Source: an uncultured Chloroflexia bacterium (lineage in GTDB: Bacteria > Chloroflexota > Limnocylindria > QHBO01). Taken from it: a DNA stretch of 64,000 bases. Below, one piece after another: positions 6,686 to 21,879 of this stretch. The translations under genes and the position numbers were made by a program. The stretch lies in contig CAVOGE010000007.1 in assembly GCA_963695195.1 (NCBI GenBank), positions 767,756 to 831,755 on the forward strand, read 5' to 3'. The notes under the pieces were generated by a model. The model did no database searches. It was not told the origin of the DNA and worked only from the letters and a program-made list of their open reading frames with translations. Numbering within the stretch: the first letter of the stretch is position 1; each line of letters opens with the position of its first letter.

Positions 6686-7815
6686 CGCTTTCGGCCTCGT
6701 CGCTTCTTCTTGCCGCCGGGGCGCTGGCCGGGCCGCGTGGCGCCGGGTGCCCCAGGGCGGGGGGTGGAGGGCTGCCGGGTCTCGTTCTTCGCGTCGCCGC
6801 CTTCCGCACCCTCGCGGCGCGGGGGCGCCGCCAGTAGCGTGCCTTCCGGCACGGGCGCGAAGCGCGGGTGCCATCCGAAGAGCGGGAAGAGGTTGCCGAA
6901 GCCCATGATCGTGTACTGCTGGACGATGAGATAGGCGGTGTAGACGACCCAGTAGAGGATCAGTCCGCTCGGGAAGAGGCCGCCCCACCAGATCGTCAAC
7001 AGCGGGAAGAGATAGGTCATCGTGTTCGTCGTGGACGACGTTGGGTCGCCCTCGATCGGCTTGGGGCTGGTCATGCGCACCTGCACGAACTGCAGGATCG
7101 CCGCGGCGACGGCCAGCCCGGAGAGGGCGAAGCCGCCCAGGCTCACGGAGAAGACGTGATCGATCTGGGCGAGGTCCAGTCCGAACAGCCACGTCACCGA
7201 GGTCTGCACCGGCTCGGAGAGCTTCAGCGGGTCGATCAGCTGGCAGTTGAGGGGCAGGAAGTGGCTGAACTCGCCGTTGAAGGCAGGGAGGTCACACACG
7301 CCGGCGATCGGGGCCCGGAACTGTGTCGTCGAGCCGGCAAGCGCCGTGATGCCCGGCACAGCGTCCTGCAGCTTGCTGAAGGCGTCGGATGCCGCCTGTT
7401 CGGCAGTGATGGTCACCACGTTTGAGGCACGGATGAGGGCCTGGTAGAGGGCGAACAGGAGGGGCAGCTGGATCAGGAGCGGGAGGCACCCGGCCGCCGG
7501 GTTGACGCCGTGCTCCCGATAGAGAACCTGCGTCTCCTCGGCGATCTTGGTGCGGTTGCCCTTGTGCTTGCGCTGCACCTCACGGATGAGCGGCGCCATC
7601 CGCTGCGCCTCACGCTGCGACCGGATCTGCCGCACGAAGAGCGGCGCGAGGATGGTGCGGATGACGATGGTGAAGACGATGATCGCCAGCGCGAAATCGC
7701 TGAAGATCAGGTGGTAGAAGCCGATCAGCAGGTTGAAGAGGGGGAGGAAGAAGAGATCCCATGGCGGCGTGAAGTGCTCGACCCCCAGGAAGCCGGCGCC
7801 GATGATTGGGCTCAA
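6682..7815 (-). CDS. yidC: Membrane protein insertase YidC (short Gram-positive type)
   Basis: Conserved YidC/Oxa1 core LAPLFVRQIRSQREAQRMAPL and GCLPLLIQLPLLFALYQAL. Basic C-terminal tail GKKKRRGRKR. Confidence 0.9.
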   Translation of the reverse strand: MSPIIGAGFLGVEHFTPPWDLFFLPLFNLLIGFYHLIFSDFALAIIVFTIVIRTILAPLFVRQIRSQREAQRMAPLIREVQRKHKGNRTKIAEETQVLYREHGVNPAAGCLPLLIQLPLLFALYQALIRASNVVTITAEQAASDAFSKLQDAVPGITALAGSTTQFRAPIAGVCDLPAFNGEFSHFLPLNCQLIDPLKLSEPVQTSVTWLFGLDLAQIDHVFSVSLGGFALSGLAVAAAILQFVQVRMTSPKPIEGDPTSSTTNTMTYLFPLLTIWWGGLFPSGLILYWVVYTAYLIVQQYTIMGFGNLFPLFGWHPRFAPVPEGTLLAAPPRREGAEGGDAKNETRQPSTPRPGAPGATRPGQRPGGKKKRRGRKR

Positions 7816-7830: not shown

Positions 7831-8037
7831 CTAGCGAACCGGATCATGGCCGCCAGGATGGAGCGGATGGCAGCGCCCGATGCGCTTGGCGCCCATCCAG
7901 CTCCCCTTCAGCAGCCCATAGCGCTCGATGGCGGTGTAGGTGTACTGCGAGCAGCTCGGCGTGTAGCGGCATGACGGCGGCATCCACGCGAAGAGCCGCT
8001 GGTATGCCCTGATCAATCCCAGGCCGATCATTCTCAT
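7831..8037 (-). CDS. yidD: Membrane protein insertion efficiency factor YidD
   Basis: 68 aa with the motif [19 protein letters not shown]. Confidence 0.85.
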
Positions 8038-8369
8038 CCACGAATCCCCGATCGCTCCACGAGCGACCGAACTGCCTCCCTGAGCTCGTCATGGCTCACC
8101 CTTGCGGCCTCCGGTCGGGCGACCACGAGGAGGTCCCAGCCCGATCCGAGGGTGCCGATCTGCTCCCGTAGCACCTGCCGCAGCCGGCGCCTCACCAGAT
8201 TGCGCTGAACTGCGCCGCCGAGAGATCGCGGGGTGCTGAGCCCGACCCTTGTCGCCGAGCCGCCGGTCCGCAGCGAGCGGAGGACCAGCAGCCGGTTCGA
8301 GCGGGCAGTGCCCTGGCGACTGAGGGCGTCGAAATCCGCCTTGCGCCGCAGCATGACAAGGGGCGGCAC
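8034..8369 (-). CDS. rnpA: RNase P protein component
   Basis: 111 aa basic protein. Sits between rpmH and yidD and overlaps yidD by 4 nt. Confidence 0.85.
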
Positions 8370-8521: not shown

Positions 8522-8839
8522 CGTCGGTGCGTGCTTCCCTCGTTCAGCGGCGGCGAAACAGGTCCGATAACACACGAACGGCTGGCACGCTCGCCAGCCT
8601 CACGCGATCTCCCCCTCGCGGGTACCCGTCTCACTCTGCGAGCGGATTCTACCGATGGCGCCGTAGGAGTGTCAAACCTCAACGGACTTCTCGGAGAATC
8701 CATTGCCGGCTCGGAATGGCTGCTGCTACACTACCGCGACCCCTGAGCAACGGCCCCCAAGAGCCGGGTCTCGTGCGCCCCGGGGGAAGTTCGAATGCCC
8801 CGGGAGCCCTGGCAGAGATCGGTTGGGAGACGGCTATTG

Positions 8840-10180
8840 ATGGATGCGAAGCAGGTGTGGCGTGCCGTCCTCGGTGAGCTGCAGGTCAGCCTCTCGCCGG
8901 CCAATTTCGAGACCTGGCTGAAGGACACGTCCCTCGTCGACCTCGACGAGAACCGCTATCGCATCGCAGCGCCAAACGGCTTCGCGCGCGACTGGCTCGA
9001 CAACCGCTATCGGACCCTCGTCAGCCAGACCCTGGCGCGCGTGGTCGGCGGATCGGTCCAGGTCGAGTTCGTGGTCGCAGACGCGCCGGGTCCGGTCCCC
9101 GCGCAGGCCGACGATGACACGCTCCCCCTGCCCCCGGCATCCGCGGGCGGCAACACGGTCAACCTCAGCGGCCGCTACGCCTTCAGCAACTTCATCGTCG
9201 GGAGCGCCAATCGCCTGGCGCATGCCGCCGCCCTCTCAGTCGCCGAGCGGCCCGGGCACGCCTACAACCCGCTCTTCCTCTACGGCGGAGTAGGGCTGGG
9301 CAAGACCCACCTGATGCACGCAATCGGCAACGCGGTCGCGGCGAAGTTCCCACGCAAGCGGATCCTGTACGCGACCAGCGAGAAGTTCACCAACGACTTC
9401 ATCAACTCCATCCGCGAGCAGAAGATGGAGGACTTCCGGAACCGGTACCGCCGCATCGACGTGCTGCTGATCGACGACATCCAGTTCATCGCCGATCGCG
9501 AACGGACCCAGGAGGAGTTCTTCCACACCTTCAACACGATCCACGAGGCCGGCAAGCAGATCGTGCTCTCCAGTGACCGGCCACCCAAGGCGATCACCAC
9601 CCTGGAGGAGCGGCTTCGCTCCCGGTTCGAGTGGGGCCTGATCGCCGACCTGACGCCGCCGGACCTGGAGACCCGCATCGCCATCCTGCGGAGCAAGGCC
9701 GAGGACCAGGTGAACCTGATCCCGGGCGAGGTGATCGAGTTCATCGCCCGCAAGGTGGTGAGCAACGTCCGTGAGCTCGAAGGTGCGCTCAACCGGGTCG
9801 TCGCGTACGCCAGCATGTCCGGCATGCCGATCAACAACGAGCTGGCGAGCGCGGTGCTCAGCAACGTCATGTACAACCCCAAGAAGCGCTCGATCACTCC
9901 GCAACGGATCGTGCGCGCGGTTGCCGACTACTACGGCGTGAACCTGGACCAGCTGCGCTCCAGCAAGCGTGATCGCGCGATCGTGGTCCCGCGACAGATC
10001 GCCATGTACCTGATCCGCGAGGAGACCGACATCTCGCTGCTGCGGATCGGCGCCGAGCTGGGCGGTCGAGACCATTCCACGGTGCTGCACGCCTACGACA
10101 AGATTGCCCGAGAGTTGCTCGACAACGACGAGATGCGCCGCGAGGTGAGCGCGGTGCGCGAGATGATCTACTCCGATTGA
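8840..10180 (+). CDS. dnaA: Chromosomal replication initiator DnaA
   Basis: Walker [14 protein letters not shown]+ sensor motifs, and the C-terminal DnaA-box binding helix VLHAYDKI. Confidence 0.95.
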
Positions 10181-10473
10181 CTCGGTGCGGTCACGGTGTG
10201 GACAAGCGGCTCACATCCGCGGTTCGCGCCCCGGCGGGCCGGGCGGTAATCCACACGGGGCCGACGCGGATCCCCGGTCTGTGCACTTCCCAGGCGAGGG
10301 GACCAACAGGAGCGGGCCGGTTATCCGCAGCGCACGGGAGCGCGGCGGAGCACAACAACCCACACCGTCCACAGCACTACGAGAGACGGTGACGTACAGG
10401 TATCCTTGACGAGTATCAGAGTGGTGTTGAGCCTGGTGGTGGACAAGCCGCCCCAGATGAGGTTGAGGACTCG
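10181..10473. promoter_or_regulatory. Probable oriC: DnaA-box cluster and AT-rich unwinding element between dnaA and dnaN
   Basis: 9-mers within 1-2 mismatches of TTATCCACA or its complement: TGTGGACAA (10197), TAATCCACA (10247), TTATCCGCA (10321), CCGTCCACA (10364), GGTGGACAA (about 10437). The locally AT-rich segment ggtatccttgacgagtatcagagtggtgttgag lies at 10399-10431. Confidence 0.7.
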
Positions 10474-11601
10474 ATGAACGTAACCGTGATGCAGGCAAAC
10501 CTGGCGCGCGGACTGGGCGTCGCAGGGCGCGCTGTCAGCAGTCGCGCCACCCTCCCGGTGCTGGCCAATGTGCTGCTGAAGACCGACAATGCCGGGCTGA
10601 AGCTCACGGCCACCAACCTCGAGATCGGCATCAACTGCTGGATCCCCGGCAAGGTGACCGACGAGGGAGAGATCACCGTGCCCGCCAAGCTGCTGGCCGA
10701 CCTGGTGACCTCGCTCTCACCCACGGACCCCGTCCACCTCCAGTTCTCCGCCAAGGACCGCACCCTCAAGGTCGCCTGCGGAGGAAGCCGATCGTCGATC
10801 AAGGGCATCGAGGCGGACGAGTTCCCGGTCGTCGCGGCCATCGGCGATTCACCTGCCACCACGGTCGACTCGCGAGCCCTCCGCGAGGCGCTCGGCGAGG
10901 TCGTCTTCGCGGCGGCCACCGACGAGAGCCGGCCGATCCTCACCGGGGTCCTCACCCGTTTCGCCGGAGGCGTCATGACGCTGGCGGCAGCCGATAACTA
11001 CCGGATCGCTGTCCGGACGGTTGGCCTGGCCAAGCCAGTCGCGCAGGAGATGACGATCGTCGTGCCGGCACGCTCGTATGCCGAGCTGATGCGCATCCTC
11101 CCCGACGCGGAGGAGATGATCGAGATCACCGTGACGCCGAACAAGAGCCAGATCCTCTTTCACGTGGACCAGATCGACCTCGTAAGCCGCCTTATCGAGG
11201 GGCAGTTCCCGAACTACGAGCCGGTCATTCCGACATCGCACACCAGTCGCGCCGTGCTCGACCGCGAGGCCTTTCTTGCTGGCGCCAGGCGCGCCAGCAT
11301 CTTCGCCCGCGACAGCGCGAACATCATCAAGGTCGAGTTGGGAGGCGAGGCCGGCGATGGGGTCTCTATCACGGCCCACGCAGCCGATATCGGCGACGCC
11401 TCGGACGCCGTCGAGGCTGCGGTCGAGGGCCAGGCGACCACGATCGCCTTCAACGCGCGCTACTTGATCGATGTCCTCGCCAATGTGGGGACCGAAGAGG
11501 TCGCCCTCGAGCTGTCGGGGCCGCTGGCCCCGGGCGTCGTCCGCGGGATCGGCAAGGACGAATACGTCCACGTGATCATGCCGGTCCGCACTGCGTCGTA
11601 A
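10474..11601 (+). CDS. dnaN: DNA polymerase III beta sliding clamp
   Basis: 375 aa. N-terminus MNVTVMQANLARGL, LTATNLEI and other beta-clamp hallmarks. Confidence 0.95.
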   Translation: MNVTVMQANLARGLGVAGRAVSSRATLPVLANVLLKTDNAGLKLTATNLEIGINCWIPGKVTDEGEITVPAKLLADLVTSLSPTDPVHLQFSAKDRTLKVACGGSRSSIKGIEADEFPVVAAIGDSPATTVDSRALREALGEVVFAAATDESRPILTGVLTRFAGGVMTLAAADNYRIAVRTVGLAKPVAQEMTIVVPARSYAELMRILPDAEEMIEITVTPNKSQILFHVDQIDLVSRLIEGQFPNYEPVIPTSHTSRAVLDREAFLAGARRASIFARDSANIIKVELGGEAGDGVSITAHAADIGDASDAVEAAVEGQATTIAFNARYLIDVLANVGTEEVALELSGPLAPGVVRGIGKDEYVHVIMPVRTAS

Positions 11602-11634: not shown

Positions 11635-12798
11635 ATGCGCCTGACCCGCCTCCTGCTCGAGGATTTCCGCAGCTACGCGAGCGCGGAGCTGCATCCGGAG
11701 GCAGGGCTGACCATCGTCGCAGGCCCGAACGGCGCGGGAAAGACGAATCTCCTCGAGGCGATCTACGTGGCGGTCGCGGGCCGCTCGCATCGCGCCGGGC
11801 CCGACTCCGAGATGGTGCGCCACGGGCGTCCATTCAGCCGCGTCCGCCTCGACCTTGCCGACCCCGCGGGCAGCGCCACCGCGCGCGTGGAGTTGATCCT
11901 GCCCGGCGCAGAGGCACCCCCCGAGATCCGGAAGCGACTGACCGTCAACGGTGCAGCCCGGCGCGTCACGTCGGTGCACGACACCGCGCGCGTCGTCCTC
12001 TTCCGGCCCGAGGAGATGCTCCTCCTGGTCGGGGCGCCCGGCGAGCGCCGTCGATTCCTCGATGCGATCCTGGCGCAGCGCGATCGTCGAGCGGCTCGCG
12101 ACCTGGTCGAGCTGGCTCGGGTCCTCGCCCAGCGGAACGCACTCCTCCGCTCGATCCGGCGCGAGGAGACCACCGCCGACGGGCTCGACTTCTGGGACGA
12201 GGCGCTCGCCACGGTGGGAGGCAGGGTGACAGCAGCGCGCCTGGAATTGGTGCGGGAGCTCGACGACCGGATCCCCGCGCTGCATGACGCCGTGGCACCG
12301 ACCGACGAGGCCGGCGATCGCGTCCGGCTCGTCTACGTCGACACGCTGAAGGACGCGTGGGCGGACCGAACGGTGCAACCATCTGTCGAGGAACTGGTGG
12401 TCGCCTACCGGCGCCGTTTGGCGGACGTGCGGCAGAAGGAGCTGTGGAACGGCGTCTCCCTGGTCGGACCGCAGCGAGACGACCTTCGGGTCGAGCTCAC
12501 CGGGCGCGAGGTGGCGACGCACGCCAGCCGCGGTCAACAGCGCACCATCATCCTCGCCCTCAAACTGGCCGAGCGAGATCTCCTCTCCGAGGGCGGGCCG
12601 ACGCCGATCGTCCTCCTCGACGACGTGTTCAGCGAACTCGACCCGGACCGGTCCGAGCGGCTCCTGGCGATTCTCCTCGAGCGCGGGCAGGTGCTCGTCA
12701 CCATGGCCGACCTCTCGGCGCTGCCGGCGGGACGCCGCGGCCTGGCGCTCTGGCAGGTCGGGGAGGGGCGCCTCTCGCTGACGCCGCGCGTGGCGTGA
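11635..12798 (+). CDS. recF: DNA replication and repair protein RecF
   Basis: Walker A GPNGAGKTNLLEA and SMC-like signature LSGGQQRT-type region (SRGQQRTIILALKLA). Confidence 0.93.
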   Translation: MRLTRLLLEDFRSYASAELHPEAGLTIVAGPNGAGKTNLLEAIYVAVAGRSHRAGPDSEMVRHGRPFSRVRLDLADPAGSATARVELILPGAEAPPEIRKRLTVNGAARRVTSVHDTARVVLFRPEEMLLLVGAPGERRRFLDAILAQRDRRAARDLVELARVLAQRNALLRSIRREETTADGLDFWDEALATVGGRVTAARLELVRELDDRIPALHDAVAPTDEAGDRVRLVYVDTLKDAWADRTVQPSVEELVVAYRRRLADVRQKELWNGVSLVGPQRDDLRVELTGREVATHASRGQQRTIILALKLAERDLLSEGGPTPIVLLDDVFSELDPDRSERLLAILLERGQVLVTMADLSALPAGRRGLALWQVGEGRLSLTPRVA

Positions 12799-13145
12799 GT
12801 CGCGCCGAGGAGGCTGCTACGGCTGTCCAGCGCGCCCTGCTGAGCTGCGTGGGCCCGGGCGCCGCCGAGCAGATCGCGCAGGCCCAGGCGCGGTTGGCGT
12901 GGGCAGAGGCGGTGGCCGCTGCCGGCCTGGAGCGCGCCGGCATGGAGTCGCGCCTGGTCCGGGTTCGGAACGGGATCGCTGATGTCGTGGCCTCGGATCC
13001 GATTCTCGCGCAGGAGCTGACGCTTCGCGCCGACGCCCTCGTGCACGGCGTCAACGCTCGCATGGCCGGACGCCCGGGCGCGACGATCGTCCTGGTCCGA
13101 CTCGCCGTAACGGTGGGTCGTGCAGGCACCGGTCGCTCCCTATAA
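12795..13145 (+). CDS. DUF721-type small protein that follows recF
   Basis: GTG start overlaps the recF stop (GTGA). Conserved position after recF. Only the 3' 351 nt of six-frame ORF 12357..13145 is used. Confidence 0.65.
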   Translation: MSRAEEAATAVQRALLSCVGPGAAEQIAQAQARLAWAEAVAAAGLERAGMESRLVRVRNGIADVVASDPILAQELTLRADALVHGVNARMAGRPGATIVLVRLAVTVGRAGTGRSL

Positions 13146-13191: not shown

Positions 13192-15414
13192 ATGAGCAAT
13201 CGCCTCTCCACCCGCATCGGTCTACCGGCGGCCGACGAGCGCGGAGCCGGAGCGCTGGACATCGTTCGCTTCCGCGAGCCTGCCACGGGAGCCGAGGCGC
13301 GCACAAAGGGCTCCCTGTTCGTCGTGGCGCAACTGACGGGCGGCGGCGCCCCGCTGGCCCGGGCGGTCGGCGAGGCGCTCGAGGTGCTCGAGCGCGATTT
13401 CTACTACGACATGTCGGTCGGCGCCCTGGGCGCCCTCTCGAAGGCACTGGCGGGGGCGAATCGCCGCCTCTTCCATCAGCGCGCGCGGCTCGGGATCCCC
13501 CGGCGCGGGTCGGTGAGCGTCGTTGCCCTGGTGGTCCGCGGTCGCGAGGGGCACGTGGCGAAACTGGGACCGGCCGCGGCCGTCATCGTCCGCGGGGGCC
13601 GGATGTACGAGCTGCCACCTCCGCCGGCGGCAGCCGAGGAGGATCCCCGGATCCGGACCCGCCTTGTCGCCGAGACGCTGGGCGAAGCGCTCGAGGTTCA
13701 GCCCTTCACCTGGCAGGGAGAGCTGACACCCGACGACCGGATCGCCCTGCTCTCGCGCAACCTGGCCGACCTGGTCGGGACCGATGAACTGCAGCAGGCG
13801 ATCTCCACGCTTCGGCCGGCGGCTGCGGTGGAGCACCTCCAACAGCTCTTCCGAATCCGCGGCGGGGTCGGCTCCGACGCCGTGCTGGCACTCGAGGTGA
13901 TCGAGTTGGCGGCCACGGCCACAACCCGGCAACTCGAGGCGGTGCGCCCGGCAGAACCGCTGGCTGGCCTGCCCGACCACAGCCCGGTCCCCCTGGCCGA
14001 TGCGATCGGCTCCGGGCTCCACCGTGCCGGGGATGCGATCGACGGGGCGCAGGCTCTCATCGCCAAGGGGATCCTGTACGGGGTCAACATCCTGCTCGCT
14101 TTCGTGCCGCGCCGACGGCCGGCCTACCCCACATCGATCCCGCGAACGGCGCTTCGCGAGGAGGGCCGCCGGCGTCGTCTGGGGTTGCTGGGGATGGCGG
14201 GCGTGGCGGGGCTGATGGCGGTGGGGGCGACCGTCGCGAGTCTCCCCAATCCCGACCCGACCGACGCCATCCTGCGCGCCAGCATTGCGCGGACCGCCGT
14301 GCTCGAGGCGCAGGACCTGATCGCCACGGTCAACGAGCGCGTCGGCGGTCGCGACCTGGTCGATCGCGAACCCGAGACGGCGACCGAGCTCCTGAACGCT
14401 GCGGCAGCGGCACTCCGACGAGCCACCGACGCGGGAGTCTCCTCGGTCGACCTTGCCCCCCTCGAGCGTCGGGTGGGACGCGGGCTGGACGCCGTGTACG
14501 CGGTGACCCGGATCTCCGAGACGACCACGGTCGCGGACCTGGGCGCGGCGTTCGATGACTTCGATCCGCTCGACATGGCACTCGCCGGCGATGGCTCGCT
14601 GTGGGTGATCGAGCTGGCGCGCGGTCGGGTGGTGCGGGTCGATCCGGCGACCGGGGACTCGGTGGTGGTCTATCGGTCCGGACAGGAGCTCGTCGGGGGT
14701 ATCGCGGGGGCCCCGTGGATGCTGGCCACCGCGGCTACCGACATGGTGCTGGTCGACCGCCAGCGGCAGGCGTGGCGCTTCGACCTGGTCGAGCAGGTCG
14801 CGCATCCACTCGCCATGCGCGGCCTCGACGCCGTCTCCGCCGGCAGCCACCTCCTGGCAGCGCTGCAGCACCGACCGCCGCTTGAGATCTTCAACCTCTA
14901 CCTGGTCGACGCCGCGGCCGATGAGGTTCGCAAGTGGTCGGCCGGAAGCGTCGTCCCCGTGACGTATCCGGGCGACCCCGAGCAGTTCCTCTCGGAGGCG
15001 CCCGATCTGCCCGCCGGCGCAGCGCGCGACCTGTTGGTCGACGCCAACCTGTGGCTGCTGCATTCGGACACCGTGACGCGAGTCAACTTCGGTACACCGC
15101 TCATCCAGGAGGACTACTCGCTCGACCCACCACCCGACGCGGCCGTTCGGCGGTCGCTCGGGTACACGCTGCTGGACGCCGCAACGATCGGGGAGCGGGA
15201 GCTGTTCTACGCGTACGACGCGGCCAATGCGCGGATCATCGCCTTCCAGCGAGCCGACGGCGCCTTTGTCCGGCAGTGGCTGGCGCCCCGCGACGGCGCC
15301 GAATCCGGCCTCCTCGACACGGTCCTGGCGATGACCGTCTCCTCGGTCGCCGATGGACCTCCGGCCGCCTATCTCCTGACACCGGACCGCATCGTCCGCA
15401 TCGTCCTCGAATAG
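13192..15414 (+). CDS. Membrane protein: N-terminal PP2C-like domain with catalytic Asp residues replaced, one TM helix, about 400-aa C-terminal extracytoplasmic domain
   Basis: PP2C blocks are recognisable but degenerate. LFVVAQLTGGGAPLA stands for the usual DGMGGH block. GSVSVVALVVRG...KLGPAAAVIVRGGRMYEL stands for the GDSR block. DDRIALLSRNLADLV stands for the CSDGL block. TM is LGLLGMAGVAGLMAVGATVASL. Alternative start at 13120. Confidence 0.6.
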   Translation: MSNRLSTRIGLPAADERGAGALDIVRFREPATGAEARTKGSLFVVAQLTGGGAPLARAVGEALEVLERDFYYDMSVGALGALSKALAGANRRLFHQRARLGIPRRGSVSVVALVVRGREGHVAKLGPAAAVIVRGGRMYELPPPPAAAEEDPRIRTRLVAETLGEALEVQPFTWQGELTPDDRIALLSRNLADLVGTDELQQAISTLRPAAAVEHLQQLFRIRGGVGSDAVLALEVIELAATATTRQLEAVRPAEPLAGLPDHSPVPLADAIGSGLHRAGDAIDGAQALIAKGILYGVNILLAFVPRRRPAYPTSIPRTALREEGRRRRLGLLGMAGVAGLMAVGATVASLPNPDPTDAILRASIARTAVLEAQDLIATVNERVGGRDLVDREPETATELLNAAAAALRRATDAGVSSVDLAPLERRVGRGLDAVYAVTRISETTTVADLGAAFDDFDPLDMALAGDGSLWVIELARGRVVRVDPATGDSVVVYRSGQELVGGIAGAPWMLATAATDMVLVDRQRQAWRFDLVEQVAHPLAMRGLDAVSAGSHLLAALQHRPPLEIFNLYLVDAAADEVRKWSAGSVVPVTYPGDPEQFLSEAPDLPAGAARDLLVDANLWLLHSDTVTRVNFGTPLIQEDYSLDPPPDAAVRRSLGYTLLDAATIGERELFYAYDAANARIIAFQRADGAFVRQWLAPRDGAESGLLDTVLAMTVSSVADGPPAAYLLTPDRIVRIVLE

Positions 15415-15433: not shown

Positions 15434-15964
15434 GTGAGGCTCATCGAGATGGTCGTGGAGAGCGTGCGCGTCCACATGCTCTCCAGCCAGCACGTTGTCA
15501 TCCTGAAGGAGTCGGACAGGGACCGATACCTGCCGATCTGGATCGGTCCCTCCGAGGCGAACGCCATCGCGATGCGCCTGCAGGGGCTCAACGCGGAGCG
15601 CCCGCTCACCCACGACCTGCTGGTCAGCATCGTCGGGACGCTCAACGCATCGGTGAGCCGGGTGGTGGTCACCAGCGTGACCGAGGGTACGTTCCACGCA
15701 CGCCTGTACGTGGAAGCTGCCGACGGCAGCGAGGCCGAGATCGACTCACGCACGAGCGACGCAATCGCTGTGGCAGTGCGCACCGGGTCGACCATCTACG
15801 TGGACGAGCGCGTCCTCGACGAGGCGGGGGTCACCCCAGACCGGGCGGAGGCGGGCGACGACCCCGACGAGAAGCTGGCGGTCTTCCGCGAGTTCATCAA
15901 CTCGCTCGACGTCGACCTAGGCGGTGGCGAGAAGGGGCCGCCCCGCGAGGAGTCCGGCGGCTAG
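15434..15964 (+). CDS. Bifunctional nuclease family (BFN/DUF151) protein
   Basis: VVILKESDRDRYLPIWIGPSEANAIAMRLQG...RPLTHDL matches the BFN domain core. GTG start. Confidence 0.7.
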   Translation: MRLIEMVVESVRVHMLSSQHVVILKESDRDRYLPIWIGPSEANAIAMRLQGLNAERPLTHDLLVSIVGTLNASVSRVVVTSVTEGTFHARLYVEAADGSEAEIDSRTSDAIAVAVRTGSTIYVDERVLDEAGVTPDRAEAGDDPDEKLAVFREFINSLDVDLGGGEKGPPREESGG

Positions 15965-16755
15965 GCCGTCTCCCGGCGCGTCCCCAGCACCTGCGTTCTC
16001 CGGGTCCACAGCGCCCAGCGCAGGGCCGCCAGGTCACGGAAGGTCCGCAGGATCTTGCCGATGCTGGCACCGGTGTTGGTGCCAGCCGCCCGCGGGTAGT
16101 GGTTGACGCCCACCTGGGCGGAACGCACGCCGCGGGCACGCAGCTTGATGAGCAACTCGGCCGACAGGAACGGCCCGTCGGCGTCCAGACGCAGGCCGTC
16201 GAAGACCTCGCGGCGGAAGAGCTTCATGGCGCAGTCGATGTCGCGCACGCGCAGGCCGAAGGCGACCGAGACGATGGCGTTGTAGGTCTTGGCGATGAAG
16301 ATCCGGTGGAACGGATCGCGCCGCTTGATGCGGTAGCCGATCACCGCGTCGACCGGCTTTCGGTCATCGGCCAATCGGTCGAGCAGGCGGCTCATCTCGC
16401 GCAGGTCGAACTGCAGATCACCGTCCGAGAAGCAGATCAGCTCGCCGCGCGCCTGCTCGAACCCCGCCTTCAGGGCGCCGCCGTAGCCTCGATTGACCTG
16501 GTGGTGGACGCGCACCCTCGGATCGGCGGCGGCCAGGGCATCGGCCATCGCCGGCGTGCTGTCGGTTGAGCCGTCATCGATGGCCAGGACCTCGATTGAG
16601 CTGACGAGGGGGCCGATCTCGGCCAGCGCCCGCTCGACGGTCCGCTCGATGTTCTCCTGCTCGTTGTAGGCGGGGAAGAAGAAGGTGAGCGCCGGCCGGG
16701 CGTCGTCGGACGGCGCCGAGGATGGAGCGGGGGACGGGTTCGGGTCGTGGGTCAC
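15961..16755 (-). CDS. GT2 family polyprenol-phosphate glycosyltransferase (Ppm1/DPM1-like)
   Basis: GTG start 4 nt after a perfect AAGGAGG. LAIDDGSTDST and the DxD region FSDGDLQFD are GT-A motifs. The upstream part of six-frame ORF 15961..18432 is not coding. Confidence 0.85.
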   Translation of the reverse strand: MTHDPNPSPAPSSAPSDDARPALTFFFPAYNEQENIERTVERALAEIGPLVSSIEVLAIDDGSTDSTPAMADALAAADPRVRVHHQVNRGYGGALKAGFEQARGELICFSDGDLQFDLREMSRLLDRLADDRKPVDAVIGYRIKRRDPFHRIFIAKTYNAIVSVAFGLRVRDIDCAMKLFRREVFDGLRLDADGPFLSAELLIKLRARGVRSAQVGVNHYPRAAGTNTGASIGKILRTFRDLAALRWALWTRRTQVLGTRRETA

Positions 16756-16887
16756 GCGACCTCCTTGCAGCGGGTCCGCCGTACCGTAGCGCAACCGCTC
16801 GGGGAGCGGGGCCGTCAAAGGGTCGATGTATACTCCGGCCCACCTTGGCCCACGACCGCAGGCGCCCCTGACCGGGTGCCCCCACCG

Positions 16888-19800
16888 ATGACCCGCGACT
16901 CCGTGAGGGAGCGGGGCGCGAGGCCATTCGACCGCGGCCTGCCGCTCGATCCCGCCACGTTGGTGATCCTCCTGATCGCACTGGGGGTGCTTCTTCGCGC
17001 CTTCATCGGCGGGGTCTTCGTGCCACTCTCCGGCTTCCGGATCGACGTCGGCGACTTCTCGGCCTGGGCCCAGCGGCTGGCCGCTGGCGGACCGGGCGAG
17101 TTCTACCAGGCCGACTACTTCAGTGACTACCCGCCCGGCTACATGTACGTGCTGTGGCTGCTCGGCTCGATCGGGGAGTGGCTGCGCCCGGTCTTCGGCC
17201 TGTCGATCACCCCTGGGCTGGTGAAGGTGCCCGGCATCCTGGCCGACGCGGGCGTCGCCTGGGTCCTGTTCATCTACGCCCGACGGTTCGGAGACCGATG
17301 GCTCGGCGGCTGGGGTGGCGAACGGATCGGCGTGGTCGCGGCGACGATCTACCTCTTCAACCCCGGCACCATCTTCAACGCATCGGTCTGGGGCCAGGTC
17401 GACTCGGTGGGGACGCTCGCCATCCTCGCAACGCTCTACCTTCTCGCTCGCGGCTGGACCGAGGCTGCCGCGGTGGGCGCCGTCGTGGCGCTGCTGGTGA
17501 AGTTCCAGTTCGCCTTCCTGATCCCGATCGTCGCCATCGTCGGCATCAAGCGACACCTCTTCGGCGGCTCGTCGGACCCGGAGCAGGACGGCCGCGGCGA
17601 CCCGCTTCGCGTGCTCACCTCGCTCGCGGCGGGTCTCGGAACGCTGGTCGTGCTGATCCTGCCGTTCGGGCTGGCTGTCTGGGCTCCAGCGGATCGCGCT
17701 CACTCGCTGATCGGGAAGTTCCTTGACGCGGCCGACACGTACAAGGGCCTCTCGATCAACGGGTTCAACCTGTGGCGTAACCCGTGGAGCGGACTGGGCG
17801 ACTCGTTGCAGTGGGGATGCGACGTCGCCCCGCCGACATGCCCCGACGGGCAAGGCATTGCTGTCGTGCTCGGCTCGTTTCCCGTCACCTGGCAGCTGGT
17901 GGGCACCGTCCTGTTCGCGCTCGCCGCCCTCATCGCGCTCTGGCAGATCGCGCGCCGCGACGACGCGACGGGCCTTCTCGTCGGTGCGCTGGTGCTGGCG
18001 GTGGCCTTCTACGCGCTCCCCACCCGCGTTCACGAGCGATACCTCTTCCCGGCGCTGGCGCTGGCTGCCCCGCTGGTGCTGCTGGGGCGGCGATGGATGG
18101 TCCTGTACGCGGCCCTGACCGTCGCGTTCTTTGCCAACGTCTACTGGGTCTACACGGCTGACTGGTCGTGGGCGGGAGGCAGCGTCATGAACCCGGGGCT
18201 GAACGGGGCTCCCATGCCACGCGACCCGCTGCTGGCCCAGTTCCTGTTCAACGATACCGGGATCTATCTGCTGTCGGCCGGGATCGTCGTCGTCCTCGTC
18301 TGGCTGCTCGTGCAGTCGGCGGGGATGGCGGTTCGCGCGAGCGATCTGGTCCTGGCCCCCATGCGTTCGAGCCCGCCGCCTGCCCCGGCCAGCCCGTTGC
18401 CCGAGCCGCAACTGCCGCAGCCTGCCACGCATGCGCCGATCCCTCGCAACCGACCACCCTTCCGTTCACAGGTGCGCCACCTGCTCCGCCGTGACCCGAC
18501 CGACCCGTACGCTTCGGAGCCGTCGCGGCGACTCGACCGACGTGATGCCCTGCTGCTCCTTGGACTCGTGCTCTTCGCCCTCGTCTTCCGCCTGTGGCGG
18601 CTTGACTTCCCGCGCCACTTCCACTTCGACGAGGTGTACCACGCGCGCACCGCGACCGAGATGCTCTCCGACTGGCAGGAGGGCTGGACCCGAGACACGT
18701 ACGAGTGGACGCACCCGCAACTGGCGAAGTACCTGATCGCGGCCGGGATCGCGGCGGTCGACCCCAACAAGGTGCTCGGCAGGACCGAGCTGGACGCGCC
18801 GGCCACGTCGCTGGCGGTCGCGCCCCAGCGCAGCGCCGAGGGGCGCCCCGCGTCGATCGTCTTCGCGTCCGCCGGAGACGAGACGATCACGGCCCGAGAG
18901 GTCACGTCGGGGACGGTGGTGTCGAGCTGGACGCTGAGCAGCCCGGTTGCCAGTCTCGCGTACGACGAAGACGCCAACCGGTTGCTCGTCGGGTTGGCCG
19001 ACACCGGGACCGTATCGGTGTTTGATCTGACCGCATTCCTGGGCCAGCTTGGTGAGCGGGGGCCGCCGCCGGGCGTGGCGCAGATCGAGACCGGGTTGGC
19101 CGGTATCCCCGAGATCGTCATGCCGCAGGGCCAGCCGATCATCCTCTTCCGCGGCAGCGACGGGATCGCCGAGGTGGAGCGCGAGACGGGCGCCCAGATC
19201 GCGTTCTCCAGCCTGGTCGCGAGTGGCATCGGCTACGTGCCGGCCGGCTCCGGCGAGGACGGCGCGCCGGCGCGCGTCGTCGCCATCGACCTGTCGAGCG
19301 GAAGCCTGGTGGCGCTCGACGCCGGCTCGCTCCAGCTTGATACCGGGGTGATCGGCAGCGACGGACGACTGTTCCTGCGCGCCCCTCCGACGGGACCGAT
19401 CATGGTCCAGGCGCGGGGCAAGGACACGCAGGTCTGGGTTCCGATCGGACCACTCCCCGCTGACGACGAGCACGGCCCCGTTGCCGGGGGCCTGACCGTT
19501 TTCGACGAGAAGCTGTCCGAGATCGACACGGTCCCGCTACCCGGCACCCCGCGACTGATCGGCTGGCAGTTCGTGGCCAACATCGTCTACGTCGCGGGGA
19601 CCGATCCGGCCACCGGCGAGGGCGAGGCATGGGCGGTGATGCCGCACGGCAACGGCGGCTCGCAGAGTGTTGGGTTCGCCGCATTCGACACGAGTCCGCT
19701 GCTGGGGGAGCCGCTGGCACTTGGGTTCGACATCTCCGACCACGCGGAGGGCGACGATCACGGTCGGCTGCTCGTCTCAACGAACGCATCGGCGGGCGCG

Positions 19801-21576
19801 CAGTTGGAGACGATCGATGCGGGCAGCAACGCGTTCGCCTGGCGCATCGCGGGGATCGTCTTCGGTTCGATCCTGGTCGGACTCATCTACCTGCTCACGG
19901 CGACCCTCTTCCGACGTCGACGGATCGCGGTCCTTGCAGCCGCCTTCGTGGCGATCGACGGGATGAGCTACGTCATGAGCCGGATTGCGATGAACGACAT
20001 CTTCGTGGCCACCTTCATCGTGGCCGCCTACCTGGTCTTCTGGCAGGTCTGGTCGGGGCGCTGGGTACGCAGCGCCTGGTGGGCCATGCCGCTGGTCGGC
20101 GTCCTGATCGGCCTGGCAGCCGCCAGCAAGTGGGTCGGCTGGTACGCGCTCTTCGGCCTGTGGGTCCTCGTCCTGGCGCGTTCCGGCCTCGGCCGCTTCC
20201 TGCTGGTCGCCGGTGTGGCATTCATCACCGTGGTGGGCGGCATCGGGGCCCCATGGCCGTTCCTGGTCGTCTGCCTGCTGGCACTCGGACTCGCGCTCGT
20301 CCTCGTCTGGGAGCGCCCGGTGCGCCTCACGGGCCGCGACCTGGCGGCGCTGCCGGCCATCGGCGTCGTGGCGGGCGGCATCGGCCTGGCCTTCACGATG
20401 GCCTACGGCACCGTGGAGGGGCGTGATCCGCGGAGCGCCGTGGAACTCCTCTTCGCGATCCTCGCGCGCGGCGCGCAGGCGGCGTGGCCAACCTGGCTGA
20501 TGCTGGGCGTCGCGGCCGTGCTCCTCCTGCTCCGCGCCTGGCGGTCACTGCGCGACCCCGCCAGCGACCGGCGCTGGTACCTCCCCGGCGAGCTCGGCGG
20601 CTTCGCCTGGCCGTGGGTTGGGGCGAGCCTGCTGGTCATCCCGCTGCTGGTCTACTTCGTGAGCTACGTCCCGTACCTGCAGCTCGGCCACGGCATCGCC
20701 ACGGTCGGGCAGGGGCCTGGCTACGGCTGGTCGCTCGATGAGCTGCACTCGCAGATGTTCGGCTACCACTTCGGTCTGCAGGCAGGCCACGCCGCTTCGT
20801 CGCCATGGTGGAGCTGGCCGCTCGACCTGAAGCCGGTCTGGTTCTACAGCCACTCCTTCGATGACCGGCAGATGGCGGTCATCTACAACGGCGGCAACCC
20901 GATCCTCTTCTGGGCGGGCGTCCCGGCCGTGCTCTGGGCCGCCGTCATGGCCTGGCGTCGTCGATCGCTTGCCCTCGCCGTGGTCGCCGCAGCATTCGCT
21001 TTCCAGTACCTGCCCTGGATCCGGATCGAGCGCGCCACCTTCCAGTACCACTACCTGACCGCCGTCCTCTTCTCGATGGTCGCCGTGGCCTACTTCGTCG
21101 ACGAGGGTCTTCGCTCGTGGGGATATCGGTCCCTGGCGATCGCCTTCCTGGTGGCCGTCGGGGTCGCGGGGGTGCTCGTCTTCCCACTCGGAGCCGCGCT
21201 GGTCATGCCGGACTGGTACATCAACGCAGCCCGCGCCCTGGCCCCATGGAACTACGCGTTCCAGTTCCCGTCGCCGCCGCAGGGAGAGCGTGCGCAGCTG
21301 ATCACGGCCGACAGCCTGAAGCTCGCGATCGGCACGGTCGTCTCGGTGGGCGCGGCCGCCTTCGCCCTGATGGGGCGGGACCTGCTCGGCTCCCGCGCCG
21401 CGCCGCCGCCGTCAGCCTCGACGACGGAAGGCGACCACCATGAGGAGCATGCCCACGACGACGAGCCCGAGTGGCCAGAGCCGATCGATGTCGATCTCCG
21501 GCAGGTACTCGCGGGCGAGGAAGTAGATCCCGAGCCCGATCAGGATCAGCCCGAAGACCCACGACCCGCCACCTGA
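16888..21576 (+). CDS. Giant (about 1563 aa) double-module GT-C glycosyltransferase: N-terminal polytopic GT-C module, then a PMT/ArnT-like module with a large extracytoplasmic insert
   Basis: Module 1 (about aa 1-500) is multi-TM with GT-C-like loops. A Pro-rich linker follows. Module 2 carries RLDFPRHFHFDEVYHARTA (the first-loop motif of the PMT family) and a PMT-type C-terminal 4-TM region (HSQMFGYHFGLQ...SPWWSWPLDLKPVWFY). A 350-400 aa beta-rich segment sits between TM1 and TM2 of module 2. A possible extended -10 promoter TGTATACT lies at 16822-16829. Confidence 0.8.
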   Translation: MTRDSVRERGARPFDRGLPLDPATLVILLIALGVLLRAFIGGVFVPLSGFRIDVGDFSAWAQRLAAGGPGEFYQADYFSDYPPGYMYVLWLLGSIGEWLRPVFGLSITPGLVKVPGILADAGVAWVLFIYARRFGDRWLGGWGGERIGVVAATIYLFNPGTIFNASVWGQVDSVGTLAILATLYLLARGWTEAAAVGAVVALLVKFQFAFLIPIVAIVGIKRHLFGGSSDPEQDGRGDPLRVLTSLAAGLGTLVVLILPFGLAVWAPADRAHSLIGKFLDAADTYKGLSINGFNLWRNPWSGLGDSLQWGCDVAPPTCPDGQGIAVVLGSFPVTWQLVGTVLFALAALIALWQIARRDDATGLLVGALVLAVAFYALPTRVHERYLFPALALAAPLVLLGRRWMVLYAALTVAFFANVYWVYTADWSWAGGSVMNPGLNGAPMPRDPLLAQFLFNDTGIYLLSAGIVVVLVWLLVQSAGMAVRASDLVLAPMRSSPPPAPASPLPEPQLPQPATHAPIPRNRPPFRSQVRHLLRRDPTDPYASEPSRRLDRRDALLLLGLVLFALVFRLWRLDFPRHFHFDEVYHARTATEMLSDWQEGWTRDTYEWTHPQLAKYLIAAGIAAVDPNKVLGRTELDAPATSLAVAPQRSAEGRPASIVFASAGDETITAREVTSGTVVSSWTLSSPVASLAYDEDANRLLVGLADTGTVSVFDLTAFLGQLGERGPPPGVAQIETGLAGIPEIVMPQGQPIILFRGSDGIAEVERETGAQIAFSSLVASGIGYVPAGSGEDGAPARVVAIDLSSGSLVALDAGSLQLDTGVIGSDGRLFLRAPPTGPIMVQARGKDTQVWVPIGPLPADDEHGPVAGGLTVFDEKLSEIDTVPLPGTPRLIGWQFVANIVYVAGTDPATGEGEAWAVMPHGNGGSQSVGFAAFDTSPLLGEPLALGFDISDHAEGDDHGRLLVSTNASAGAQLETIDAGSNAFAWRIAGIVFGSILVGLIYLLTATLFRRRRIAVLAAAFVAIDGMSYVMSRIAMNDIFVATFIVAAYLVFWQVWSGRWVRSAWWAMPLVGVLIGLAAASKWVGWYALFGLWVLVLARSGLGRFLLVAGVAFITVVGGIGAPWPFLVVCLLALGLALVLVWERPVRLTGRDLAALPAIGVVAGGIGLAFTMAYGTVEGRDPRSAVELLFAILARGAQAAWPTWLMLGVAAVLLLLRAWRSLRDPASDRRWYLPGELGGFAWPWVGASLLVIPLLVYFVSYVPYLQLGHGIATVGQGPGYGWSLDELHSQMFGYHFGLQAGHAASSPWWSWPLDLKPVWFYSHSFDDRQMAVIYNGGNPILFWAGVPAVLWAAVMAWRRRSLALAVVAAAFAFQYLPWIRIERATFQYHYLTAVLFSMVAVAYFVDEGLRSWGYRSLAIAFLVAVGVAGVLVFPLGAALVMPDWYINAARALAPWNYAFQFPSPPQGERAQLITADSLKLAIGTVVSVGAAAFALMGRDLLGSRAAPPPSASTTEGDHHEEHAHDDEPEWPEPIDVDLRQVLAGEEVDPEPDQDQPEDPRPAT

Positions 21577-21879
21577 GTGTCGGCGTGCCGGACGCCCGGA
21601 CTGCGCAGCTCGGCCGGCTGGCGCCACCCAGCCCGATGACGGCGCGGCGCCTCCCGGGTCCGGGTCGGCGGCGTCCGACGACCCCGCGCCTTCCGGAGCC
21701 TGTGGCACCACGATCCACATCACGATGTAGACGATGATGAAGATGCCCCCGGTGATGAGCCCCAGCACGGCCCACACCACGCGCACGATCGACGGGTCGA
21801 GGTCCAGGTACTCGGCGACGCCGCCCGCGACGCCGCTGATCATCTCCTCGCGACGCGACCGATAGAGCCGGCGATTCAT
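21412..21879 (-). CDS. PspC-domain membrane protein
   Basis: AGGAGG sits 7 nt upstream of ATG. N-terminal PspC domain RLYRSRREEMISGVAGGVAEYLDLDPSIVRVVWAVL, then TM segments. Its start overlaps the upstream gene stop (ATGA). Confidence 0.75.
   Translation of the reverse strand: MNRRLYRSRREEMISGVAGGVAEYLDLDPSIVRVVWAVLGLITGGIFIIVYIVMWIVVPQAPEGAGSSDAADPDPGGAAPSSGWVAPAGRAAQSGRPARRHSGGGSWVFGLILIGLGIYFLAREYLPEIDIDRLWPLGLVVVGMLLMVVAFRRRG

Follow-up and report, generated by a model that had tools for sequence, protein, structure and literature searches.

Gene X, which follows the replication genes dnaA, dnaN and recF in the 64,000-nucleotide stretch of Limnocylindria DNA analysed here (the window), probably encodes a non-catalytic, receptor-like pseudophosphatase that crosses the membrane once and descends from a membrane-anchored PP2C phosphatase of the PstP type; we give this reading a probability of about 0.7. 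A PstP-type origin is favoured because the true PP2Cs closest to X in sequence consist of a PP2C domain, one transmembrane (TM) helix and an outside tail. For the same reason the term 'PstP-like', used in an earlier reading made from the DNA letters alone (the sequence-only reading), is apt. The features of gene X and its two neighbours are collected in Table 1.

Table 1. Gene X, its parts and its flanking genes, in window coordinates.
Feature	Position	Strand	Basis or remark
Upstream neighbour, small DciA/DUF721-like gene	12795..13145	+	Pfam DciA weak; start codon not fixed; 46-nt gap to X
Gene X, whole	13192..15414	+	ORF and translation; 740-aa bitopic membrane protein, stop codon included
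Parts of gene X in order: pseudo-PP2C, TM helix, stalk, NHL propeller			
Cytoplasmic PP2C-fold domain without metal-binding Asp (aa ~20-240)	13249..13911	+	Foldseek, HMMER, hhalign
Q47-L48 in place of DGMGG Asp-Gly (Asp bridging both metals; Gly carbonyl ligand)	13330..13335	+	Alignments
P127 in place of GDS Asp (third-metal ligand in tPphA and PstP)	13570..13572	+	Alignments
R189 in place of SDG Asp	13756..13758	+	Alignments
G227-S228-D229, with G227 at the place of the DN-motif Asp	13870..13878	+	Ungapped HMMER and hhalign alignments
Linear motif PAEPLAGLPDHSPVPLAD (aa 253-270) within a linker of predicted disorder	13948..14001	+	Invariant in close family
Juxtamembrane helix, moderately hydrophobic (aa 286-306), followed by Arg-rich stretch	14047..14109	+	Hydropathy 1.8 over 19 residues; AF2 helix
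Single TM helix (aa 330-351), N-terminus cytoplasmic	14179..14244	+	Top hydropathy window
Extracytoplasmic three-helix stalk (aa 352-452)	14245..14547	+	AF2 model m3f131013891f, pLDDT 95
Extracytoplasmic six-bladed NHL-type beta-propeller (aa 453-740)	14548..15411	+	Profile and Foldseek
Downstream neighbour, BFN (bifunctional nuclease) domain gene	15434..15964	+	Pfam BFN_dom E 1.8e-40; 19 nt after X

The open reading frame extends from an ATG at 13192 to a stop codon at 15412-15414 and encodes 740 amino acids, exactly as the sequence-only reading had it. An identical protein (P0001) is present in public data, together with hundreds of orthologues of 739-741 residues. A longer start at GTG 13120 is unsupported, because the orthologues begin with MSNRL or MxxRL, and a gene fusion or frameshift artefact can be dismissed, since the 740-residue length is conserved across hundreds of assemblies. 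Among species-representative genomes, at least 588 stretches match the family. The sources searched contain neither a Pfam or NCBIfam model nor an informative annotation for it; the names of its members read hypothetical or, for some members in JGI, 'PrpC phosphatase' or 'streptogramin lyase'. A scan for promoters and terminators around X gave results at chance level.

Profile comparisons identify residues ~25-240 of X as a true PP2C homologue, sharing its ancestry with the PPM catalytic domain (PF00481, PF13672 and PF07228). The X family aligns to true PP2Cs with a probability of 99.85% and an E-value of 6.9e-31 (hhalign), and a HMMER profile of the dead family only matches tPphA from Thermosynechococcus elongatus in the PDB over nearly the full domain (profile positions 41-222, E 4.5e-9). 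In addition, the matches of the X-family profile include proteins that score Pfam PP2C at E 3.6e-19, and a true Limnocylindria PP2C used as tblastn query matches X domains directly, with E-values down to 8e-8. tPphA (PDB entries 2j82, 2j86 and 2xzv; TMt 0.74-0.77) is also the closest structure: in a Foldseek search with the AF2 model of X, entry 2j86 ranks first (E 1.3e-11, TMt 0.74), followed by PstP (1txo), and the leading matches, to tPphA, PstP, PppA and Stp1, have E-values of 1e-11 to 1e-9 and TMt values of 0.67-0.77, those to tPphA and PstP lying at 0.70-0.77. The best 50 PDB matches are PP2C enzymes throughout, in agreement with an alpha-beta-beta-alpha sandwich fold. The PP2C similarity claimed in the sequence-only reading is therefore significant by hhalign, by the tPphA profile and by Foldseek, and the cytoplasmic domain (residues ~20-240) has retained both the fold and the structural residues of PP2C.

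The relationship is detected by some searches and missed by others. The tPphA match required a profile of the N-terminal part alone; the matches listed for the full-length family profile against the PDB are almost all propellers, with no PP2C among them. A search of X against Pfam and NCBIfam (hmmscan, E 10) gave weak propeller families only and no PP2C, PP2C_2 or SpoIIE match, and phmmer against PDB sequences gave only regucalcin (E ~1). A word-index homologue search with the N-terminal domain returned close relatives only, and it was an exhaustive search of representatives that bridged to the true PP2Cs. In the first AF2 run, on full-length X with a shallow alignment, the pLDDT was 57 and the propeller was poorly modelled, with values of 70-85 for the N-terminal domain.

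C-terminal to the PP2C-like domain, the linker has a pLDDT of ~30 in the AF2 model. Its motif at residues 253-270 is conserved in Limnocylindrales as PEEPLAGAPDRSPIPLAD and is absent from a clade of 692-residue homologues. The TM helix of the window protein is rich in Gly and Ala (LGLLGMAGVAGLMAVGATVASLP) and is flanked by nine Lys/Arg residues in the preceding 26 positions and two in the following 25, a positive-inside bias; distant clades have a TM helix at the equivalent place. The part outside the membrane comprises 389 residues, so that the single TM helix and outside domain of roughly 400 residues described in the sequence-only reading are both found. A second AF2 run on this outside domain, with a more diverse alignment, reached a pLDDT of 94.9 and a pTM of 0.91, the stalk helices corresponding to residues 4-29, 42-61 and 66-83 of the modelled fragment. 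The model and the profile matches together indicate a six-bladed propeller with an NHL-type blade signature. Foldseek relates it to Pizza6, the NHL domain of Brat (1q7f) and the PknD sensor domain (1rwi), with TMt values of 0.71-0.77, and profile comparison with the PDB finds the Pizza6 designs (E 5e-11, via blade 1) and PknD (1rwi, E 0.08). The NHL signature is recognisable by sequence in one blade only (residues ~455-500), and Pfam NHL matches a single distant member of the family (E 2e-4). In one orthologue (L050) the tail is rich in S, T and P, a composition typical of surface proteins that are glycosylated.

Alternatively, the propeller itself could do the work of X, either as a factor for envelope assembly or binding or as an enzyme akin to SMP-30/lactonases or streptogramin lyases; the dead PP2C domain would then be a mere cytoplasmic anchor or oligomerisation plug and take no part in signalling. 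This explanation, which we regard as unlikely, draws on weak profile matches to the Vgb_lyase, SGL, DUF6923 and BamB-like families, on the JGI name 'streptogramin lyase', on the envelope-related genes downstream in the window (GT2, a PMT/GT87-like protein mannosyltransferase, PspC and LiaF-like), on a RodZ-like gene that follows the X homologue in one distant-clade member, and on the tail of the L050 orthologue. The matches to enzyme families, however, reach only 12-15 bits against curated cutoffs of 27-434, and the best structural matches are the non-enzymatic NHL propellers of PknD, Brat and TRIM. Moreover, an anchor-only role of the PP2C-like domain is disfavoured because this domain is better conserved than any other region, the propeller included; a mere anchor would have no need of this. 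The PP2C-like domain shares 67% identity with the window protein in the close clade and 39% in Limnocylindrales, compared with 59% and 25% for the propeller, and the TM sequence is 19% conserved between clades. Eight positions, D23, R37, K39, D73, G126, R134, D182 and D229, are invariant in X orthologues across two orders (in the residue table of 69 orthologues, 'invariant' acidic residues are those found in 67-69). Judged from this pattern, the dead PP2C domain varies least of all parts of X and is under purifying selection.

The conserved domain has lost the residues on which PP2C chemistry depends. MAFFT, HMMER and hhalign agree that the four canonical metal-ligand aspartates, which belong to the DGMGG, GDS, SDG and DN motifs of the PPM metal centre, are replaced in X by Q47, P127, R189 and G227; in the profile alignment these residues are paired with D34, D119, D193 and D231 of tPphA. 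Position 47 is Gln in 39 and Thr in 26 of the 69 orthologues, and Asp or Glu in none; position 127 is Pro in 63 and Asp in five; position 189 is Arg in 41, Pro in 20, Gly in four, Ala in two, Ser in one and Glu in one, next to a Ser188 that is retained in 67. At the fourth site, S228 (68/69) and D229 (69/69) form a conserved Ser-Asp pair two residues downstream of the position of the DN aspartate. Intact aspartates at shifted positions, considered beforehand as a sign of an active enzyme, are not seen for the two central ligands, as no Limnocylindria orthologue clade has an acidic residue at positions 44-54 or 185-192 apart from one Glu189 (n=69). The sequence-only reading was right about the loss itself, which it extended to all metal-binding aspartates, and about Q47; it misassigned two of the substituting residues (Pro, not Leu, in KLGPAAAV and Arg, not Asn, in LSRNLADL), and G227, the fourth of the canonical positions, went unmentioned.

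Because all four aspartates and the ligand glycine (now L48) are replaced, X should be unable to build the two-metal centre of PP2C chemistry. The candidates that remain near the ligand positions are D229 and, tentatively, D23 at the Asp of the RxxNED motif; R17 and D23 are matched to this motif by MAFFT only, the hhalign and HMMER alignments beginning further downstream. As far as the alignments tell, these two residues cannot rebuild such a centre, and we infer that the N-terminal domain is catalytically dead. The proposal of a dead PstP-like phosphatase is thus supported both by significant PP2C homology and by the loss of the ligands. A residual single-metal site might still be formed by the invariant D23, D73, D182 and D229, the last being two residues away from the canonical position.

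That X is still an active phosphatase or hydrolase, with a non-canonical site rebuilt from D23, D73, D182, D229, E119 and E235, is very unlikely. These six residues are invariant in 67-69 of the 69 orthologues, D229 lies close to the DN position, a Glu takes the place of the DGMGG aspartate in some outer clades and JGI labels some members PrpC. Yet the nearest true PP2Cs share D73, D182 and E119, which have a structural and not a catalytic role there, and in all Limnocylindria clades the bridging aspartate (now Gln or Thr) and the SDG aspartate (now Arg, Pro or Gly) are without an acidic substitute within several residues. The Pfam PP2C, PP2C_2 and SpoIIE models, furthermore, fail to match X even at E 10.

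The genes that precede X in the window were identified by Pfam as DnaA (8795-10180), DnaN (10474-11601) and RecF (11635-12798), in line with the order given in the sequence-only reading; the DUF721 gene placed next in that order is backed only by a weak DciA/DUF721 match (E 0.0018; 18.9 bits, below the cutoff of 24). The small gene keeps its place in 49 close-clade loci, and a weak DciA match is found in L081, a locus of the 692-residue clade. Downstream, X and the BFN gene probably form one operon, and wherever a locus extends far enough, X is followed by a BFN gene, either at once or past a rhomboid gene. Wherever the contig is long enough, the order dnaA-dnaN-recF-(dciA-like)-X-(rhomboid)-BFN is preserved; this applies to 80 of 80 genome loci and to L081, members of the class Limnocylindria (Chloroflexota) without exception. 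Among the window ORFs scanned (several short ORFs were left out) there is no gyrB, whose usual place X takes according to the sequence-only reading, and no Pkinase, FHA, FtsW/RodA, transpeptidase or true PP2C. The search for a partner kinase or FHA protein among these ORFs was therefore negative, and no partner is indicated for the source genome. The parallel drawn to Actinobacteria, in which PstP and PknB are encoded next to the origin, holds in part: in L081, a PASTA kinase and a true PstP-like PP2C are encoded on the other strand ~6.7 kb downstream of X. Among the window ORFs scanned there is neither a kinase nor an FHA gene.

Regulated intramembrane proteolysis, in which the neighbouring rhomboid would cut the TM helix and free the pseudo-PP2C into the cytoplasm as a signal, is suggested by a rhomboid gene 7-50 nt after X in the Limnocylindrales clade (24 loci) and L081 and by the helix-destabilising Gly/Ala content of the window TM helix, but is most improbable, given that no rhomboid gene is found at this place in the window's own clade (L001-L049 and the window) or by tblastn anywhere in the 64-kb window, that clades differ widely in TM sequence, and that adjacency by itself is weak evidence.

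Under the preferred reading of X as a receptor-like pseudophosphatase, the PP2C shell would have been retained for binding or allosteric regulation and not for catalysis, by analogy with RssB and TAB1. The propeller may bind an envelope or external ligand or partner, and this would, through the stalk and TM helix, shift the cytoplasmic domain to another conformation or oligomeric state. That domain could then bind, sequester or scaffold partners, perhaps phospho-Ser/Thr proteins, Hanks-type kinases or a true PstP-like phosphatase, with the linker motif as a likely docking or regulatory element. We infer from these considerations that X acts as a scaffold or sensor. A bolder but improbable extension would make X a transmembrane checkpoint, whose propeller senses the state of the envelope and reports to the co-encoded replication machinery (dnaN-recF-dciA-X-BFN). 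The dead PP2C shell would serve as a phospho-Ser/Thr reader or as an 'anti-phosphatase', keeping phosphorylated proteins of replication or division shielded or sequestered, and the adjacent rhomboid would release the shell in some lineages. If true, this would constitute a bacterial receptor pseudophosphatase pathway without a described counterpart.

Bacterial pseudokinases are only now being catalogued, and bacterial pseudophosphatases are, to our knowledge, almost unknown apart from RssB. The X family joins an apparently dead PP2C domain to an extracellular propeller and occupies one fixed chromosomal place by the replication genes throughout a class of mostly uncultured, abundant soil and freshwater Chloroflexota. 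X is a defined candidate for the coupling of envelope sensing to cytoplasmic regulation in Limnocylindria, and a natural test case for the capabilities of a metal-free PP2C shell. Recognition of the family as pseudoenzymes also averts its false annotation as phosphatases.

Of the known systems, PstP (Rv0018c) from Mycobacterium tuberculosis and PstP-like PP2Cs have the same domain order as X, with a cytoplasmic PP2C domain, one TM helix and an extracytoplasmic C-terminal part, and the PstP structures 1txo and 2cm1, which share the fold, are among the top Foldseek matches. In contrast to the PstP-like enzymes, X lacks all four metal-ligand aspartates, and where the nearest true PP2C relatives mostly carry low-complexity Thr/Pro-rich tails (in one case a LysM domain), X has a larger, folded stalk and propeller. 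The pstP gene lies in the Rv0014c-Rv0020c cluster near oriC. X is likewise origin-proximal, and in L081 even has a true PstP-like PP2C in the vicinity; however, it is not part of an operon with pknB, fhaA/B, rodA and pbpA, and linkage to a cluster of Hanks kinase, FHA and RodA/PbpA genes is not seen among the window ORFs scanned, X being placed between recF-dciA and the BFN gene. tPphA, the closest match in sequence and structure, differs in being a soluble, active three-metal enzyme according to the PDB entry titles.

With its PP2C fold, degraded metal site and signs of purifying selection, X belongs with the PP2C-family pseudophosphatases RssB (E. coli) and TAB1 (human), whose main role is independent of phosphatase activity; in RssB the PP2C shell is described as an adaptor module for the regulated binding of proteins (PMC5468089). 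X is thus a new version of a class already known from these two pseudo-PP2Cs. The C-terminal domain of RssB and TAB1 are, unlike X, soluble, the former being fused to a receiver domain and the latter to kinase-binding tails, and neither has a TM helix or outside sensor. RssB and TAB1 show no particular sequence kinship with X: they are absent from the 29 sequence-profile matches and from the 50 best structure matches listed for X, and the loss of activity in X is independent of theirs. The closest parallel for the outer half is PknD (Rv0931c; 1rwi/1rwl), which together with the Pizza designs derived from it represents the six-bladed NHL propeller (Foldseek TMt 0.71 for the PknD sensor) and which, like X, joins an outside propeller through one TM helix to a cytoplasmic domain of signalling type. 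The cytoplasmic domain of PknD is an active Hanks kinase, whereas that of X is a seemingly dead phosphatase, and in X three additional helices form a stalk that separates the propeller from the TM helix.

The 740-aa protein is encoded by an intact open reading frame (740 codons plus a stop codon), with a codon-position GC pattern that matches that of the other genes of the window (68–72% GC). An identical protein, P0001, is present on a public contig of 1.87 Mb. A word-index search yields 529 relatives, the best 120 of which are 739–741 aa long with 66–93% identity; the named ones among these 120 derive from MAGs of Chloroflexota or Candidatus Limnocylindria. The ATG at 13192 is assigned as the start because the orthologues begin with MSNRL or MxxRL; an upstream GTG at 13120 was rejected, since these N-termini fit the ATG.

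The N-terminal part of the protein is unambiguously a PP2C homologue, as the sequence-only reading had proposed. Direct searches (Pfam, NCBIfam and phmmer against the PDB) return no PP2C match. A profile of the N-terminal fragment of the family, searched against 1.84 billion representatives (E≤1e-3), matches 3002 proteins, including P0283, P0288, P0297 and P0314 (E about 1e-25 to 1e-22), which carry canonical DGMGG, GDSRAY, CSDGL and GGSDN motifs; in a test alignment holding these four, five members have Pfam PP2C matches (best E 3.6e-19). Among solved structures, a dead-family profile, built from 19 members with none of the catalytic motifs, matches the cyanobacterial phosphatase tPphA over nearly the whole domain (E 4.5e-9) and, more weakly, MspP, Stp and PstP. 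Aligned by hhalign to the four true PP2Cs, the same profile gives 99.85% probability and E 6.9e-31 over 209 columns. The N-terminal domain of the AF2 model has a pLDDT of 70–85, and all top 50 Foldseek matches of the model in the PDB are PP2C enzymes (tPphA, PstP, PppA, Stp1, MspP, ABI1, PPM1K), with a best E of 1.3e-11 and TMt up to 0.77. In addition, tblastn with a true 238-aa PP2C from a Limnocylindria genome matches the domains of this family (E down to 8e-8). Profile alignment and structure prediction thus both confirm the fold.

The mapping of the metal ligands is identical by MAFFT, HMMER and hhalign (tPphA numbering read from the HMMER-profile alignment). The Asp of DGMGG (tPphA D34) is replaced by Q47 and the following ligand Gly by L48 (both in VVAQLTGGG), the Asp of GDS (D119) by P127 (KLGPAAAV), that of SDG (D193) by R189 (LLSRNL) and that of DN (D231) by G227 (GGVGSD). 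The sequence-only reading was right that the metal-binding Asp residues are lost and that Gln occupies the first position; at the second and third, given as Leu and Asn, the aligned residues are Pro and Arg, and the fourth, G227, was missed. In 69 full-length orthologues spanning two orders, position 47 is Gln or Thr and never acidic, position 127 is Pro in 63 and Asp in 5, position 189 is Arg, Pro, Gly, Ala or Ser with Glu in one, and position 227 is Gly or Ala with Asp in one. None of 39 tabulated domains of the wider family that lack the catalytic motifs has the full ligand set; in some outer clades the first site is Glu. A rebuilt active site might be sought in the invariant S228-D229, two residues after the DN position, and in D23 and R17, which in the MAFFT alignment only may be the last Asp and the Arg of the RxxNED motif; these residues could be at most a remnant of the metal site. 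Near the two central ligand positions there is no acidic residue to stand in for the lost Asp, so the case of an active enzyme with its Asp ligands intact but shifted does not apply; D229 and D23 could not rebuild a two-metal centre.

The domain without its metal site is nevertheless the best-conserved region of the protein, with 67% identity between the window protein and its close-clade orthologues (n=38) and 39% to those of Limnocylindrales (n=30), compared with 53% and 30% for the stalk, 59% and 25% for the propeller, and 66% and 19% for the TM helix. This argues against a reading in which the propeller is the working part and the N-terminal domain a mere anchor. Residues D23, R37, K39, D73, G126, R134, D182 and D229 are invariant. 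Neighbours of the lost ligands are retained (G126 and S188, and largely G224-G225), suggesting continued constraint on the former cleft. K39-G40, YYxD73, E119, R134 and G181-D182 occur in the nearest true PP2Cs as well and probably have a structural role; E29-P30, R37, W174, P209, S228-D229 and E235 are among those specific to the dead family. As judged from this conservation, the dead PP2C domain is functional and under strong purifying selection.

The domain is followed by a predicted-disordered linker with an invariant motif, PAEPLAGLPDHSPVPLAD (residues 253–270), which is kept in two of the three Limnocylindria clades. Next come a moderately hydrophobic helix (residues 286–306), an Arg-rich stretch and then the single TM helix (residues 330–351), around which Lys and Arg are distributed nine before versus two after, placing the N-terminus in the cytoplasm. 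The single TM helix and large outside domain noted earlier are borne out: residues 352–740, modelled with a diverse alignment (pLDDT 94.9, pTM 0.91), are predicted to form a three-helix stalk and a six-bladed propeller. Foldseek matches this part to Pizza6 designs, the NHL domains of Brat and TRIM proteins and the sensor of the kinase PknD (1rwi, TMt 0.71). Blade 1 carries an NHL signature in its sequence, and the profile matches both Pizza6 (E 5e-11) and, weakly, PknD (E 0.08).

The gene lies at the gyrB position of the ori cluster, as the sequence-only reading had it, preceded by dnaA, dnaN, recF and a weak DciA match, which is likewise weak in the counterpart at L081, an ori locus of the 692-aa clade. 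Among the window ORFs scanned (all but a few short ones), no gyrB, Hanks kinase, FHA protein or true PP2C was found, so the suggested partner kinase and FHA protein do not appear there. The gaps flanking the gene are 46 and 19 nt, and a scan around it found no terminator-like site between it and its neighbours; its position is fixed, and it probably forms an operon with them.

Table. Coordinates of the ori-cluster genes and other features of the window, and of the rhomboid genes at related loci.
Feature	Coordinates	Strand	Remark
Jag/KhpB	5672-7192	minus	Pfam; 506 aa
YidC	6682-7815	minus	Pfam
RNase P protein	8034-8369	minus	Pfam
DnaA	8795-10180	plus	Pfam
DnaA-box-like 9-mers	10197-10329		dnaA-dnaN gap
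DnaN	10474-11601	plus	Pfam
RecF	11635-12798	plus	Pfam
DciA/DUF721-like small ORF	about 12795-13145		sub-threshold Pfam match, E 0.0018
740-aa protein	13192-15414	plus	intact ORF
BFN nuclease-domain gene			19 nt downstream of the 740-codon gene
GT2 gene	15961-18432	minus	beyond BFN; GT2 domain at low-coordinate end
PMT-like ORF, very large	16747-21576	plus	beyond BFN; 1609 aa; PMT/PMT_4TMC domains in C-terminal third
PspC-domain and LiaF-like genes	21412-23033	minus	membrane stress genes
Three double-GNAT acetyltransferase genes	25310-28322		in a row, 330-400 aa each
Glycolipid-type run	28319-33375	minus	
Rhomboid gene, L050 (Limnocylindrales)	10357-11076		between orthologue and BFN
Rhomboid gene, L081 (692-aa clade)	10090-10797		between orthologue and BFN
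Rhomboid gene, 23 further Limnocylindrales loci			between orthologue and BFN

Several other features of the window were observed. The dnaA-dnaN gap contains a cluster of three DnaA-box-like 9-mers that each differ from TTATCCACA at a single position, and the whole window has 8 such 9-mers versus 1.8 expected by chance; the gap is probably oriC or part of it. The Jag/KhpB ORF overlaps yidC and has its Jag_N domain from residue 175, so that its true start probably lies downstream, or else it has a long N-terminal extension. The GT2 and PMT-like ORFs overlap on opposite strands, and the matching region of L081 holds a GT2 gene, an unknown gene and a GT87/PMT gene; this block, just upstream of the PspC and LiaF-like genes, is possibly a protein O-mannosylation module. 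In L050, the C-terminal tail of the pseudophosphatase orthologue is S/T/P-rich. The run at 28319 encodes a GT4 glycosyltransferase, a PHP-associated protein, two HtrB/Lip_A_acyltrans-type acyltransferases and myo-inositol-1-phosphate synthase, and resembles a pathway for glycolipids of the phosphatidylinositol-mannoside type, unusual outside Actinobacteria.

In a scan of one genome per GTDB species, at least 588 genome stretches encode a relative (588 of the 600 matches listed). The order yidC(−)/dnaA/dnaN/recF/(dciA-like)/pseudophosphatase/BFN/GT2 is found in the best 80 loci as far as the contigs reach, and these are mostly labelled Limnocylindria, Limnocylindrales, Chloroflexota or Chloroflexia. 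A few, identical in gene order, are labelled Steroidobacteraceae, Binatia, Verrucomicrobiia, Candidatus Angelobacter, Anaerolineaceae or 'uncultured bacterium'. Seven loci with the first four of these labels (L001, L017, L033, L045, L046, L051 and L071) have the ori cluster of Limnocylindria; the DnaA of oddly labelled close-clade loci is about 90% identical to that of the window, and the DnaA of L051 and L071 is 74–75% identical. The odd labels probably stem from errors of binning or labelling in public MAGs.

Three orthologous clades occupy this locus: the 740-aa clade of the window, that of Limnocylindrales (about 760–816 aa, 30–35% identity) and a 692-aa clade (27% identity), placed at the ori locus by L081. 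In the Limnocylindrales and 692-aa clades, a gene for a rhomboid intramembrane protease lies before BFN and may have a functional connection with the single-pass protein; release of the protein through rhomboid cleavage is disfavoured by the lack of an adjacent rhomboid gene in the window's clade. L081 also encodes, about 6.7 kb downstream of the orthologue and on the opposite strand (16812-18082, minus), a true PstP-like PP2C (238 aa, C-terminal TM helix) and a Pkinase-PASTA (PknB-like) protein, a pair resembling the origin-proximal pknB/pstP cluster of Actinobacteria. Distant proteins of the same architecture also exist away from the ori locus. At L082 8001-11094 (contig FWPU01001905.1), one of them, P0270 (775 aa), is followed after 11 nt by a RodZ-like gene (HTH_25 and RodZ_C), which hints at a link to cell shape or the envelope. 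Among true PP2Cs, the closest have a PstP-like layout: a PP2C domain, a single TM helix and an outside tail rich in Thr and Pro. This points to an origin by duplication of a PstP-like enzyme and a metal site lost ahead of the diversification of the class.

The data establish a PP2C-derived fold devoid of a metal centre, an N-in single-pass topology and an NHL propeller outside the cell. Such a protein would be unable to dephosphorylate and may act as a receptor-like binding or allosteric module, by analogy with RssB, in which the PP2C shell serves as a regulated adaptor (PMC5468089). A ligand or partner would bind the propeller outside the cell, and the signal would be relayed inwards via the stalk and the TM helix; the cytoplasmic domain and the linker motif would then engage cytoplasmic partners.

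We rate the protein as a class-wide, membrane receptor-type pseudophosphatase. Its anatomy is solid, and the consequence for annotation is clear: a phosphatase annotation should be avoided, despite the label PrpC given to relatives in some JGI entries. No published description of the family was found in the literature searched, nor any Pfam or NCBIfam model. The protein is homologous to the PPM/PP2C family, but lacks its defining catalytic feature. It shares its architecture with PstP, whereas the PknB/FHA operon is absent around the gene, and its sensor type with PknD, without the kinase. RssB and TAB1, among the few known PP2C pseudophosphatases, belong to the same functional class in an unrelated domain context, and the loss of activity arose independently of both.
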